Assembly: GCA_964016885.1 (NCBI GenBank)
Contig: OZ024742.1
Coordinates: 345,402,001-345,466,000, forward strand
From: Eledone cirrhosa
Taxonomy: Eukaryota
DNA: 64,000 bases
Direction: 5' to 3'
In this document: one piece after another, positions 34,151-52,559 of the stretch
How positions within the stretch are numbered: position 1 is the first letter of the stretch
Layout: each line of letters opens with the position of its first letter
Notes under the pieces: generated by a model
Seen by the model: the letters and a program-made list of their open reading frames with translations, nothing else
What the model was told of the DNA's origin: nothing
The model's database searches: none
Program-made: the position numbers and the translations under genes

Positions 34151-34782
34151 AATATGTTGAAAAAGTAACAGACTTTAGATATACAGTGCGCTATCATTAA
34201 AACAGGGAAAAACCACCAGTGTATGGAATCTATAACCTATGAAAGCAGACTATAGACACGATAATTAAAAATATAAATTTAAGCGTAAATAAATATCTCT
34301 ATAACTATAAAACACACGTACAAATCCAGAGAGATCTGTTTCGCCAGTAAGTTGTTGACAGAAATGGAATAACCTCGGTTCCTCAGCGTGTGTAAGGCTA
34401 TACATTTCAGACAACACCAAGTTTTGGCTGCCCTTTCTAGCAGCTTGTCCCTCAGAGGCCCTTAAACACGCTGTGACTTCTCTATCCCACGTGTAGCTGG
34501 ACAGTCACTTTTAAAATTCTTTTAGTGTTGTCTTACACATGCTGATGAACCAGGGTTATTTCATTTTTGTCAACAACTTACTGGCGAAACAGATCTCTCT
34601 GGATTTGTACGTGTGTTATATAGTTATAGAGGTATTTATTTACGCTTTAATTTATATTTTTAATTATCATGTCTATAGTCTGCTTTTCATAGGTTATAGA
34701 TTCCATACACTGGTGTTTTTTCCCTGTTTTATTGATAGCGCACTGTATATCTCTCTCTAGTGTGTTACCTTTTCAACATATT
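34151..34782. mobile_element. Fold-back PLE-terminus-like element: ~245-bp inverted arms with degenerate HHR cores
   Basis: Arms 34151-34396 and 34532-34782; CTGATGA A CCAG..CTGG C GAAAC AGATCT at 34542-34596, mirrored as CTGAGGA on the minus strand; stem I does not pair well. Confidence 0.75.
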
Positions 34783-35035
34783 GTATTTTAAAGAGCTCAG
34801 GATTTCTTCTCCTTTGAACACATTATTTACAAGTAATGGCGAGGATCTATGGTCCGCTAATTTATCGTGATATATATATATATATATATATATATATATA
34901 TATATATATATATATATATATATATTGAGATAAGCGGAGCAAGCAAGATTCAAACAATTTGTTTAAATAAATTAAAAAATATAATTTAAATATTCACCTA
35001 TTGATCTCGTTTCTATATATATATAGGAACAAGTA

Positions 35036-35133
35036 TGACCCCGACGGCAGAGCTCAAGCCGTTTCGACGGCTATTTCTGGACTAAATAAGAATTTTTAGC
35101 CTGGTAAATAAATAGCCGAACTTCTCAGGAGGT
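35036..35133 (-). ncRNA. Type I hammerhead ribozyme, family C, with one base missing from the core
   Basis: rc: ACCTC CUGA-GA .. CGGCUAUUU[loop]AAAUAGCCG UC GAAAC GGC UUGAGCUCU GCC GUC GGGGU; stems I, II and III all pair. Confidence 0.65.
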
Positions 35134-35608
35134 ATTTTCTTATAAGGGAAGATAGTAATTGTCAGGAGGATTGGTCAAAAATGTGTTGTAAAGACAGATG
35201 AATCTATCAAGTCATTTGGTAGGAGGTAGGGGTGGCTGAACTTGCCGGTAGAACAAAGAGGGAGTGGGGGAAAGCCAGTCAAGCGTTGAAAGTGAAATCT
35301 ATACACCAGATTCTAAGGATATTGTATAAAAGGTCGAAAAAGTGTACTGGAGAAGAGGAGGGGGAGTTGAAAGAATAGGTAAATCGAATGGGAGTAAAAA
35401 AAAAAAAATAAAAATAAAAAACATTATAAAAATGAGGAAATAAATATATAAAAAAACTATTTCTGGTTACTACTCCATTTCCACAATCACCAAATTTCTC
35501 ATTGGTATGGCTAAGCTACGGAAAAGTTTAATAAGTAGAGAATGGGAAAAATACTAAATACGAGATTGTAGTAAAGAATTTTATAAAGCCGGCTTTACAA
35601 GGGTCTAA

Positions 35609-35946
35609 TACCACTGCTATAGATAGTTAGTAATCAGCCAATGCTATCTTACAATGACGGGTTTATAAGTTGAGAAAAATACTAAAATACTACTACAAAA
35701 ATACTAATACAAAATATTAATACAAAAATACTAATACAAGAATACTAATACAAAAATACTAATACAAAAATACCACTAAGAAATTTAGAAACCACAGAAA
35801 TGGAGCAGCAACCAGAAAGAAAAAAAGGTTGGTCTTAATATTTTTTATTAGTATTTTTGTAGTAGTATTTCAATATTTTTCTCAACTTATTAACCAGTCA
35901 TTGTAAGATAGCATTGGCTGATTACTAACTATCTATAGCAGTGGTA
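35609..35946. repeat. ~100-bp inverted repeat ending at a (TA)n tract, with internal ATACTAATACAAAA tandem repeats
   Basis: TACCACTGCTATAGATAGTTAGTAATCAGCCAATGC... mirrored at 35846-35946. Confidence 0.85.
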
Positions 35947-36100
35947 TATATATATATATATATATATATATATATATATATATATATATACAGTATTTTC
36001 CGTTGTGTTGTAATATAAATATTACACACAGTAGATTATCAGCTCACGTAGAGTTTGCTCGACGGTTCCAGTTGTAGTTCCAAAAGTAATCCGGAGAAAA

Positions 36101-36380
36101 ATAGAAAGATTTGAATGGATACAGTTTAGTTGAAAGGAATTTATTGACACGTGTTTCTATAACAGTTACATAACCTAAAACAGCTGCTATCTACAAACTT
36201 TTAGTTATGCAGACATTCAATATTTCTGATGAAATGACAGTAAATAATAACATTGAAATATTGAATGTCTGCATAACTAAAAGTTTGTAGATAGCAGCTG
36301 TTTTATGTTATGTAACTGTTATAGAAACACGTGTCAATAAATTCCTTTCAACTAAACTGTATCCATTCAAATCTTTCTAT
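36101..36380. mobile_element. Near-perfect 280-bp palindrome with an HHR core at its apex
   Basis: ~126-bp arms; centre CTGATGA AATG..CATT GAAA TATT G AATG TC (36226-36269); right end abuts (TA)n. Confidence 0.85.
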
Positions 36381-49539: not shown

Positions 49540-50149
49540 GAAGTAAGTGACGTAGGCACTACTTTAAAACCGATAGCGTATGGCCTTTTAAATGATTTTA
49601 ATTAAACATACGGTATATTGCCAAATATACTATACATACATTCATATACACACACACACACACACACACACACACACACACACACACACACACACACACA
49701 CACACACACACACACACACACACACACACACACACATATATATATATATATACAAATAAAAGCAGTGTTATATACTCATATTAATACCCTGTAATTACCA
49801 AACTCAAAGTATAAATACTTTATGGTCTGAGTTCAAATCCCGCCGATGTTAACTTCGCCTTTCATCCTTACAGGTTCAATAAAATAAAGTACCAGTAATG
49901 TACTGGGTAATTGCTGACCTTGTGCCAAAAGTAGAAACAATTATATAATATATATAGTCATAAACACTATATTTTTACCCTCGTAATTTTAAACACACAA
50001 TTTACTGTGTTTATTACTATATATATTTTTGAATCAGTATGAGTATTTCTTTAGAACTGCTGGAGTAGCAACAGATACCTCAGGCACTGATGGTGATTAT
50101 CGCTAAATACTGATATTGGTTAGATTATCAATATTAGTATTATTGGGCA

Positions 50150-50276
50150 CCCACTGATGAATTATAAGAGCCCACGTGAATATATATCTGTTGATCTTAT
50201 ACAAGCTCCTACATAAATTGATATAATTTCACCCAAATTGTAAGAATCTTATAATGAAACGAGACGTCCGTCTGGG
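50150..50276 (+). ncRNA. Type I hammerhead ribozyme with 77-nt stem II loop
   Basis: CCCA CUGAUGA AUUAUAAGA [77 nt] UCUUAUAAU GAAACG AGACGUC CGUC UGGG. Confidence 0.72.
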
Positions 50277-50456
50277 AAGAGATATATTCGATATGTCTCA
50301 TATGAAATAATACAGTCAATTTTTCACACAATACCGAACATTTAATTAGGAATATACTCACTTATTTCCTAATGTTTGTTGAGTGAGTTGGAATTTGGCC
50401 GGGTATCGCTAAAAGCTTTCTCCGATAATGTATTTATTTATATATATATATATATA

Positions 50457-51736
50457 CAGGGTGGGGCATAATTCCTGTTACAAAGTTTTAAATCAATTTA
50501 AAAATACATTATGTTGCTAATATAACTAATATAATTGTATCAAATCTATTGACTATAACCATATTAACTATTTTTCAGAACATTACTCCATTAACAATTT
50601 GCAATGTCCATAGAATTGAAAAGAAATTTCTTAATAGAGAAGCATGAAAAAGGCCTGACTCCACCCAAGATATTTAAACTGGGGGAAATTCTTAAGATCA
50701 ATAGAATGTTGATCAAAAGGACAATCGATTGATTTAAGGAAACTTCCTCGACCAAAGACAGACCTCAATCCGGACGCCCTCGCACCTCAAGAACACCAAA
50801 ACTCATTAAAAGTGTGACGGAAAAAATAAGGCGTAATCCAAGAATGTCCATGAGAAAAATGGCAGAAGAAGCAGAAACATTACCGAGAACTATGCGGAGG
50901 ATATGTCGAGATGATCTGGGGATGTCACCCTGTAAGTTCCAAAAGAGGCAGCTTCTTTCTGCAGCCACAATTGAAAAGAGGCTCTCCAGAAGTAAACTGT
51001 TATTGAACTGTATCAAGGATGGCACGCTGCAAAACATCATCTTTACAGATGAGAAGTTATTCACTGTGCAGCAGTCTCACAATCATCAAAATGATCGAGT
51101 ACTTGCAAAAAGTCTCAAATCAATTCCTTCAAGTGTAGGAAAAGTGTTCAGAACACAGAAACCAGCATCAGTGATGGTTTGGGCAGCCATTTCTGAAAGA
51201 GGGAAGTCTCCTCTGATTTTTGTGCCTCAAGGAGTTAAAATTAACAAAGAACTTTACATAAAGGATATTTTGGAAGGAGCACTGATGCCATGGTGCATAT
51301 TTGTTTATGGCGATGACATTTGGACTCTCCAACAAGATGGAGCGATGTGCCACACTGCTCGCGTAACTCAACAGTGGTGTAGAGACCATTCTCTTGCATG
51401 GATCAGTAAGGATCTCAACCCTCTCGATTTTTCTTTATGGTCAATTCTTGAGACTGAAGCCTGCTCTACTCCTAGCCAAAATATTGAAACTCTAAAATCA
51501 AAACTGAATAAAGTATGGGAGAAAATACCCATGGAAACTGTTCGTGCAGCCATCGAAAACTTTCCTAGAAGTCTTCGAGCGGTAGTGAGAGCTAGAGGAA
51601 AGCATTTCGAATAAAGTGTTGTGTAGTTGTTTAATAGTATATTACTTACTATTTGTTGAAGTCAGATCTTGAAATAAATGTTTTTTTCAAGAACTATTTG
51701 CCTTTTATTTTGTAACAGTTTTTATGCCCCATCCTG
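50457..51736 (+). mobile_element. Tc1/mariner DD37D (maT-like) DNA transposon, near full length, inserted in (TA)n
   Basis: 28-bp TIRs CAGG(G/A)TGGGGCATAA..CTGTTACAAA; TA flanks; internal transposase. Confidence 0.93.
50604..51614 (+). pseudogene. DD37D transposase pseudogene
   Basis: ATG 50604 in frame with ORF 50814-51614; premature TGA at 50730; SGRPR, FTDEK, VMVWAAIS, QQDGA, DLNPLDF motifs. Confidence 0.9.
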
Positions 51737-51953
51737 TATATATATATATATATATATATATATATATATATATATATATATATATATATATATATATATA
51801 TTGTTATACTTTGGGAGGGTCATGTTGCCAATAAGAAACACACGCACCAGTTGCTTTCACTTCAATTTATTATAAATTAAATTTATAAATTTAGGAATTT
51901 ATAAATTTCCGGTTGGTTGGTTGGTTCCACAACCAGACGATTGTTCATATATT

Positions 51954-51996
51954 GTCAAAGTTCTTTCGTCACACATTCTGTGACCTCTTCAGTGAC
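51954..51996 (-). ncRNA. Minimal hammerhead ribozyme, family D, in a TA-flanked PLE terminus (51800-52147)
   Basis: rc GUCA CUGAAGA G GUCACA GAAUG UGUGAC GAAA G AA C U U UGAC. Confidence 0.75.
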
Positions 51997-52559
51997 TGGG
52001 GATTCTTTTCTTTGTTTATATGCCTCTCCTTTGTTCTGTCCTACGCCATCTTGTTTTTGTCAACATGATCCTCTCAAAGTATAACAATATCGGTTTCAAC
52101 ACACGTTTTCAGATAAAGAATCTTGCTAAACAAATTCAGAAACGAAATATATATATATATATATATATATATATATATATATATATATATATATATATAT
52201 ATATATATGTATATATGTATATATATATAACGTAGGAGTTGTGTTAAGGAACCAGATGGACCATAACGCACCAGAGTACACAATACTTAGGAGTCCAGAA
52301 ATAGACGTCGAAGTGGTGGAGCTGTACCAGGAGTTACTTGGCCCTGGAGCTGTGTGTGCACTGGAACTGAAGTCAGCACCTTTGATTGGAATCGAACGCC
52401 TGAACATTACACCCGTGCCTCTGTCTATATCATTAGTTAATTATGTTTACCATAAAACACATTACTGTTTTTATCTGATTAAAAGATTTCAAACGATAAA
52501 AATTTCATTTGCAGCAGAAAAGAAAATATTTGATTTGTACCTCTCTATGAGTGGATGAA

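Follow-up and report, generated by a model that had tools for sequence, protein, structure and literature searches.

A crowded cluster of hammerhead ribozyme motifs in the Eledone cirrhosa genome, likely grown by repeated Penelope-like element insertion into (TA)n

The window analysed here, a stretch of 64 kb from the Eledone cirrhosa genome (3.0 Gb; contig OZ024742.1, positions 345,402,001 to 345,466,000), exhibits a dense cluster of hammerhead ribozyme motifs on both strands between its positions 34151 and 52147 (~18 kb). An original prediction interpreted this region as an insertion hotspot of Penelope-like elements (PLEs), and proposed that a transcript crossing it in either direction could be cut into many small RNAs. 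Are these motifs genuine hammerheads, how did so many come together, and would they dice a crossing transcript? Our analysis indicates about 14 independent insertions from about nine families of PLEs or PLE-dependent elements, each leaving the hammerhead of its 3' pseudo-long terminal repeat (pLTR), in a cluster that has likely grown by repeated target-primed insertion into (TA)n; we put the probability of this reading at roughly 85%. What the sequences show directly is the motifs and the families they belong to, 3' ends fixed at (TA)n, 5' truncation of variable extent, tails and head-to-head inverted copies.

All 16 sites listed in the original prediction are present, as are two further sites that it called degenerate; the coordinates it gave are the left ends of stem I, and each motif is designated below by the position of its core residue C3. 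The type I core (C3 U4 G5 A6 N7 G8 A9 ... G12 A13 A14, with A15.1-U16.1 and H17) is found at 16 of these 18 sites. The CUGANGA and GAAA boxes that had been read there are exact at the same number of sites, the exceptions being 35128, which reads CUGAGAA, and 43650, which lacks G12 as well as its 3' half and had rightly been described as truncated. The "degenerate" cores at 34.4 and 34.5 kb are in fact both exact, with hairpin stems III of 6-8 bp. Proximal stem I is just 2 bp long at 44300, 47518 and 49479. A descriptor demanding the exact core and all three hammerhead stems, tuned on the families of this region, accepts 12 of the 18 sites. Over 60 dinucleotide shuffles, done in tiles of 300 bp, it averages 0.07 matches and never exceeds 1; the count is well above the shuffled expectation. 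An earlier and narrower descriptor, which allowed a loop II of up to ~60 nt and so missed 50154, gave 7 strict and 11 loose matches, with shuffle means of 0.005 and 0.19-0.25 (200 shuffles each).

Base pairing is maintained among copies. Over 22 distinct copies of the A-group, collected from the window, its flanks and the genomic background, stems II and III are paired in 20-22 of 22 at seven pair positions, and the pairs are conserved across several pair types (e.g. AU/GU/GC). Within the 8-nt stem III, the central pair requires a dimer and is kept in 21 of the 22; position 7 takes all four bases. This covariation is to be read descriptively, related copies not being independent.

The PLE origin put forward in the original prediction is backed by the anatomy of the families and by the match of family F to published Hydra ribozymes. 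Genome searches returned 2,085 (A), 2,537 (B), 1,298 (C), 1,225 (D), 841 (E), 2,099 (F), 39 (G) and 2,890 (H) first-look candidates, the top copies being 85-100% identical; family N is represented by 5 records. In each of the nine families the distance from the ribozyme to the downstream (TA)n is fixed, or takes two values according to the presence of a tail, and the upstream distance is scattered. Inverted upstream arms occur in 15 of 27 (A), 22 of 33 (B), 13 of 35 (C), 18 of 24 (D), 13 of 34 (E), 16 of 24 (F), 18 of 24 (G), 0 of 17 (H) and 0 of 5 (N) records; these records overlap one another, and internal hairpins make up the shortest calls. These are hallmarks of endonuclease-bearing PLEs, of which 5' truncation, an inverted 5' copy, a 3' tail and a microsatellite target are all present. 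A same-strand GIY-YIG open reading frame (ORF) lies upstream of the ribozyme in families C (6 loci), E (5 records, one of them also with a reverse transcriptase, RT), G (2), H (1) and N. The Hydra-type endonuclease of family C ends 850-1040 nt upstream in the 6 loci, and family E is also linked to an RT with the YVDD motif.

The GIY-YIG fragments at 39049-39921(-) and 45656-46153(+) and the RT fragment at ~43670-43975(-), noted in the original prediction, are present by motif; Pfam gave no score to the GIY-YIG or RT fragments of the window, and the RT motifs RWK and DKT did not appear in the ORF fragments of 7 loci. The ORF 39049-39921 and its relatives combine a CxCx5C linker, a distal CxxC near the C-terminus and a (TA)n target, the signature of the Hydra clade; the endonuclease of the corresponding element (36397-40460) has 60,294 first-look candidates in the genome, of which 150 were scored. 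Families N and E exhibit Cx4CxxC linkers, Neptune-type by motif. The motifs Cx2-5CxxC and CCHH visible in the ORF 45656-46153 and in the family E ORFs are also common to Nematis and Naiad, so that these motifs, seen here in 3' fragments, may fit Nematis as well as Neptune.

How, then, may such a cluster arise? Four pairs among the 18 sites each belong, as arms or units, to one insertion, which brings the total to ~14 insertions. As parts of PMC8557442 and PMC11167929 lead us to infer, the PLE GIY-YIG endonuclease would nick (TA)n; reverse transcription would then prime internally, 20-330 nt downstream of the ribozyme, and usually end early. Most copies would be little more than a ribozyme because of this early stop, and a second, inverted copy would double the ribozyme count. 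Each insertion would split the TA tract into two fresh targets, and because of these two new targets counts would cluster. The job of the ribozyme is likely to lie in the RNA of the parent element, in cutting tandem transcripts, rather than in this locus; such cleavage would proceed as a dimer for families A, D, E, G and N, and possibly as a monomer for B, F and H. Minimal motifs with a palindromic stem III acting as dimers, assumed in the original prediction, are accordingly a good description of A, D, E, G and N, and not of B, C, F and H, which have hairpin stems III. Its statement that all motifs sit in short TA-bounded elements likewise does not apply throughout: two elements are PLE bodies of 2-4 kb, and the ribozymes 40761 and 49479 have no (TA)n directly after them.

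Four observations weigh against this reading. The covariance-model check proposed with the original prediction went against it: no Rfam match reaches the gathering level in the window, or in five sister loci. The only hammerhead among the 150 weak matches listed of 194 is Hammerhead_HH9 (E-value = 0.047) at 45024-45096 and 45494-45566, the family D pair, with a score of 24.4 bits against the 52 required; many matches to miRNA families at E-value level are hairpin or microsatellite noise. The Rfam models miss these ribozyme variants, and the absence of a gathering match is no refutation. The motifs might instead be chance matches in AT-rich, hairpin-rich repeats, to which the silence of Rfam and the isolated folds, often favouring other structures, would lend some colour; this is virtually untenable, being refuted by the shuffles, by reversed-pattern controls with zero matches and by the covariation, as well as by the fixed position of the motifs in PLE 3' ends and their match to the Hydra ribozymes. 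The second observation is that no contiguous same-strand ORF could be tied to families A, B, D and F. Third, the Hydra-type and Neptune-type labels are based on motifs rather than on an RT tree, and are used here as putative clade assignments. The fourth is the number of cores per TA cluster, 12 for 25 clusters in the region versus 0.13 per cluster in the background (~4x); because of this ~4-fold surplus, TA supply alone fails to explain the excess of motifs.

The proposed hotspot stands in part. The region has 12 motifs, against a mean of 1.56 per 18 kb in 50 evenly placed genomic blocks (1 Mb in all, 88 motifs per Mb), none of which reaches 12; its flanks have 10 in 134 kb and 15 in 112 kb. 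On the other side, two of the 50 blocks hold 10 and 11 motifs. When motifs are merged into events the region has 9, and one block (L118-119, G000:C1:260000001-260020000) equals it with 14 cores in 9 events of several families per 20 kb; another (L166-167) owes its 10 motifs to a 311-nt tandem array. The exact pattern of the A-group has 57,551 matches in the genome (reversed control 0), or 19.2 per Mb, with 11 in the 1-Mb sample and 4 in the region, and by this measure the sample undercounts the genome ~1.7-fold. We put the local excess at ~4-8-fold because of this undercount, because the descriptor was tuned on the region, and because the borders of the region were set around the cluster after its discovery. 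Across the sample, (TA)n is found within 350 nt downstream of 80 of the 88 background ribozymes versus 35% of 2,000 random positions, and the motif count tracks the number of TA clusters (Spearman 0.65, 50 blocks).

A special landing pad, in which accessible chromatin, homing into PLE copies already present or relaxed selection acts beyond TA targeting, would account for the surplus of cores per TA cluster and for the repeats found in other loci, which match 86% of the region against 25-76% of the neighbouring 10-kb blocks with their sparser motifs. Part of PMC11167929 describes a PLE enzyme able to nick AT-rich DNA in its own pLTR, and one insertion in the region is nested within another PLE. 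The borders drawn around the cluster, the tuned descriptor, the sampled block that equals the region event for event and the undercount speak in the opposite direction. We regard a landing pad as somewhat doubtful; it adds to repeated insertion into (TA)n and does not replace it. By rough extrapolation the genome would hold 2.6 x 10^5 motifs or more, and thousands of comparable clusters. In a genome where such motifs number in the tens of thousands, the cluster is crowded but not unique.

Several insertions in the region consist of two copies placed head to head. A family B insertion in (TA)n (34153-34869, both strands), with a ~85-nt tail on its right arm only, carries the ribozymes 34386(-), CUGAGGA, and 34542(+), CUGAUGA, both with a GUA site. 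The A-group contributes three such insertions. In 40499-40850, the left arm is truncated inside the core and the ribozyme 40761(+) has a stem III AUACUUAU with one mismatch; 41533-41955 holds 41730(-) and 41848(+), intact, with an AUA site and mutually masked; and 48925-49391 (family A) holds the intact 49019(-) and 49199(+), damaged in stems II and III, again mutually masked. Damaged head-to-head halves of family J, of which relatives elsewhere have a full core, are found at 48103-48265. Halves of family C type (GAAA, stem III and the 3' arm of stem I only) at 37609-37817 are nested in the TA-rich 3' region of the Hydra-type element. A family G fold-back insertion (35991-36380) carries 36226(+), with a 4-nt palindromic stem III and an AUU site, and an inverted arm masks its 3' half. 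The inversion junctions at 36222-36255 and in the other family G loci (L241-L245) cluster at short complementary words beside the CUGAUGA box, which suggests that fold-back at microhomology makes the inverted arm.

Other insertions are single 3' ends. A solo family A end (43258-43533, +) has the intact and unmasked 43342, with an 8-nt self-complementary stem III of the dimer type. Family F is represented by a fragment (43612-43685, +) with the broken 43650, its 3' half replaced, and by 49441-49580(+) with 49479, which has the published Hydra architecture (U10.1-U11.1, a 4-bp stem III with a 1-nt loop, a GUU site) and a weakened proximal stem I. Family H (50030-50438, +) includes an intact ribozyme at 50150-50276 (C3 50154, GUC site), in which a 9-bp stem II closes a ~75-nt loop. 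A family E 3' end (51802-52146, -) carries the unmasked 51992, with a CUU site, a stem II of 6 bp, a stem I of 4 bp and a stem III AGAACU.

A 3' fragment of a Hydra-type PLE of family C (35024-35945, -) carries the ribozyme 35037-35134 (C3 35128), which has three good stems and a GUC site. The Hydra-type PLE of 36397-40460(-) is 5'-truncated, with an inverted 5' piece at 40347-40460; besides its GIY-YIG ORF with the CxCx5C linker, it has an atypical 3' ribozyme-like motif (C3 36532, core CCGAAGG, U4C) that was missing from the original list. In a remnant of family E type (43670-44600), the inverted RT piece with YVDD is joined to a plus-strand 3' region with 44300(+), a CUU-site ribozyme. The Neptune-type PLE of family N (45678-47635, +) is also 5'-truncated; it has a Cx4CxxC linker in its GIY-YIG ORF frame and a minimal ribozyme 47518(+) (ACGU, GUC site), and its 3' end lies at (TA)n. 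Family D, a retrozyme-like tandem repeat whose 470-nt unit has no ORF, is present with 1.8 units (44820-45677, -), with the 3' end at (TA)n and the ribozymes 45547(-) and 45077(-), both with a palindromic ACUAGU and a GUC site. The D element and the Neptune-type PLE abut 5' end to 5' end at 45677/45678 with no TA between them, and the junction lies inside a single (TA)n-bounded unit (44820-47635); it could result from two RNAs primed from the two nicked strands, or from a later deletion.

Part of the count might stem from local duplication rather than from separate insertions. The segments 43258-43685 and 49117-49515 have in common the order A, TA, short inverted end, F, with the same junctions, and the two D copies have a private substitution in common. 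Set against this, identity is 96% between the A parts of the two segments but 87.5% between the F parts, and the window copy of A is matched at 95-97% by copies in other places. Because A copies elsewhere are equally similar and the F parts have diverged, one recent duplication need not be invoked; we consider duplication unlikely.

Would the region then act as a ribozyme array, with read-through RNA of either strand cut into many small RNAs? Exact cores at 16 sites on both strands, the intact and unmasked 43342(+), 50154(+) and 51992(-), and the compatible stem I and III arms of the A-group copies would favour it. But 8 of the 16 exact-core sites lie in inverted repeats, and on either strand transcription through a head-to-head pair reaches the antisense arm ahead of the ribozyme. 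We estimated the cost of the active fold as constrained folding versus the ensemble, an equilibrium prediction. For the isolated motifs, the active fold is predicted to lie 0.7-13.5 kcal/mol above the ensemble. With 400 nt of upstream sequence, the predicted cost is 2.5-13.3 kcal/mol for 43342, 44300, 45077, 45547, 47518, 49479, 50154 and 51992 and 8.8 for 35128, versus 23-100 kcal/mol for 34386, 34542, 36226, 40761, 41730, 41848, 49019 and 49199. Among those left unmasked, 43342 depends on a dimer partner and all its A relatives on the same strand are masked, a G-G mismatch adjoins the cut site in both D copies of the window, and 51992 combines its CUU site with a weak stem III. Damage is present at 43650, 49199 and 49479. 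At most ~1-3 undamaged and unmasked sites are left per strand, most of them needing a partner. The best candidate for monomer cleavage is predicted to be 50154.

A 2017 paper reportedly described dimer cleavage of PLE ribozymes. The relevant part of PMC4209133 gives no monomer cleavage and low dimer activity for PLE minimal ribozymes, and that of bioRxiv 2026.07.22.740005 reports cleavage for 1 of 9 predicted retrozyme dimers. In part of PMC11167929, ribozyme cleavage is unnecessary for PLE insertion in vitro, and no RNA ends are seen at the site. Among 83 unmasked ORFs within 60 kb on each side (of 87 candidates, 4 overlapping the Tc1/mariner element being excluded), only transposon domains and no host exon were found, a search that short exons would escape. 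We predict that most copies here could not cleave a transcript crossing them, being masked by their own antisense arm, damaged or partnerless; a ribozyme array is very improbable. The dicing proposed originally finds no support in these predictions, and within a cluster built by repeated PLE insertion the ribozymes would mostly be silent passengers. The head-to-head layout predicts hairpins of 120-330 bp in read-through RNA, not cleavage products; such hairpins may be substrates for editing or small-RNA pathways.

Two families depart from the canonical core. In exact-pattern searches of the genome, for which the reversed-pattern controls gave 0, the family C core CUGAGAA (C3-A8) has 1,274 matches versus 5 for CUGAGGA. 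Most background C-type copies are truncated inside stem II, without any CUGA box. Family C elements were also searched for a second canonical core; 35 records yielded none in common. The motif 36447-36537(-), with C3 at 36532, exhibits a palindromic ACAAUUGU and a U4C core (CCGAAGG/CCGAAGA) in most of 10 close copies; its stem II is not clearly formed, and we call it only putatively ribozyme-like. The available text of PMC3088659 lists U3-A8 and U4C among natural hammerhead variants, and C3-A8 does not appear in it. The open-access literature provided no direct report of data on a C3-G8 mismatch or of a family-wide C3-A8 core.

Family D forms arrays of 1 to at least 4 units with a GC content of 36%; its dispersed copies are 98-99% identical and (TA)n-anchored. 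No endonuclease or RT was found upstream in 24 records, the longest ATG ORF having 35 codons, and 8 of the 24 have an antisense ribozyme copy upstream. Both window copies have G at position 1.1, where 22 of 23 readable family records have C, the lone G record being that of the window. An intron (GT...AG) in the D unit was considered and rejected; its spliced form occurs in 0 of 33 other copies, and the short unit of the window is a microhomology deletion. By the sequence criteria given in parts of PMC7229834 and bioRxiv 2026.07.22.740005, family D classifies as a putative non-LTR retrozyme. A second retrozyme-like family is the 311-nt array (L167, G000:C4:20010001-20020000, ~700-2700), with seven identical tandem units containing a type I ribozyme and one inverted copy.

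Elements of other kinds lie within and around the cluster. A Tc1/mariner with terminal inverted repeats lies in (TA)n at 50457-51737, with a transposase ORF (50733-51614) giving weak helix-turn-helix matches in Pfam. A short interspersed element with a tRNA-like part (42000-42240; Rfam tRNA, 28.7 bits, 42170-42227) is frequent in the background blocks. Short inverted-repeat elements, similar to miniature inverted-repeat transposable elements or fold-back elements, stand beside or around (TA)n at 33704-33890 and 30764-30849, with no recognisable ribozyme. Positions 1-12015 are occupied by a strongly strand-skewed satellite in which a 20-bp unit recurs ~600 times. A broken long interspersed element with RT (PF00078) and endonuclease-like frames, which we take to be Tx1/L1-like, is found at 16190-20924(-), and a Helitron remnant (Helitron_like_N and PIF1 domains; L100-L101) lies ~45-55 kb to the right of the window.

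Parts of PMC4209133 and PMC8557442 describe, for PLEs, pairs on opposite strands, truncated solo copies, inverted copies at the 5' end, tails and the targeting of (TA)n. Like the metazoan pLTR hammerheads in the former, the present motifs have type I topology, a palindromic dimer stem III in the five families named above and, in several families, an additional nucleotide between 9 and 10.1; most copies are solo and truncated, and opposite-strand pairs stand 100-700 bp apart. They differ from that account in the 57,551 exact copies of one group, compared with ~9,000 in total in Xenopus tropicalis, in the long hairpin stems III of B, C and H, tied there to fungi and protists, and in the large loop II of family H. 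The Hydra clade, including Hydra-1_Obim, has the same C-terminal GIY-YIG, CxCx5C linker, distal CxxC, (TA)n insertion, inverted 5' copy and tail in the part of PMC8557442 concerned, and its table S2 contains the family F pattern (ctgatga-t...t-gaa, 4-bp stem III, U17); that source gives one octopus family with 4 matching ends, in contrast to the 60,294 first-look candidates here, and the two non-canonical cores set the present families apart. With the Neptune clade, N and E have in common the Cx2-5CxxC linker ahead of GIY-YIG, the microsatellite target, and the minimal ACGU ribozyme in the 3' region. Family D resembles the non-LTR retrozymes of PMC7229834 and bioRxiv 2026.07.22.740005, as far as their available text goes, in its head-to-tail ORF-less units with a type I ribozyme. 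Its 470-nt unit is longer than the 150-450 bp of the former and falls inside the 51-972 bp of the latter, and PLE-type (TA)n anchoring, tail and inverted 5' arm are not described in those portions of either. PLE expansion and hotspots of transposable elements are reported for Octopus vulgaris in PMC13282606, the available text of which makes no mention of ribozymes; the open-access literature yielded no direct report of a ribozyme census in octopods or molluscs, or of a load this large in a mollusc.

Taken by itself, the cluster is nothing out of the ordinary in this genome and belongs to a kind already in the literature; its value is that of a sample from a very large, Rfam-invisible ribozyme population. 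A C3-A8 family of more than 1,200 copies and a U4C family imply either working core variants or cleavage that is dispensable for transposition. The PLE scars carried by multi-unit D copies are what direct copying of circular RNA into (TA)n by a PLE enzyme would be expected to leave. We therefore offer, tentatively and at somewhat less than even odds, the view that the genome carries one of the densest ribozyme loads among animals through a mass expansion of Hydra-type PLEs, that the C3-A8 and U4C cores are workable or cleavage is dispensable, and that family D is a young retrozyme copied by a PLE enzyme from circular RNA into (TA)n. If true, these families would be natural experiments on what PLE ribozymes do, and they make two unsettled points testable: whether PLE transposition needs self-cleavage, and whether PLE enzymes move retrozymes.

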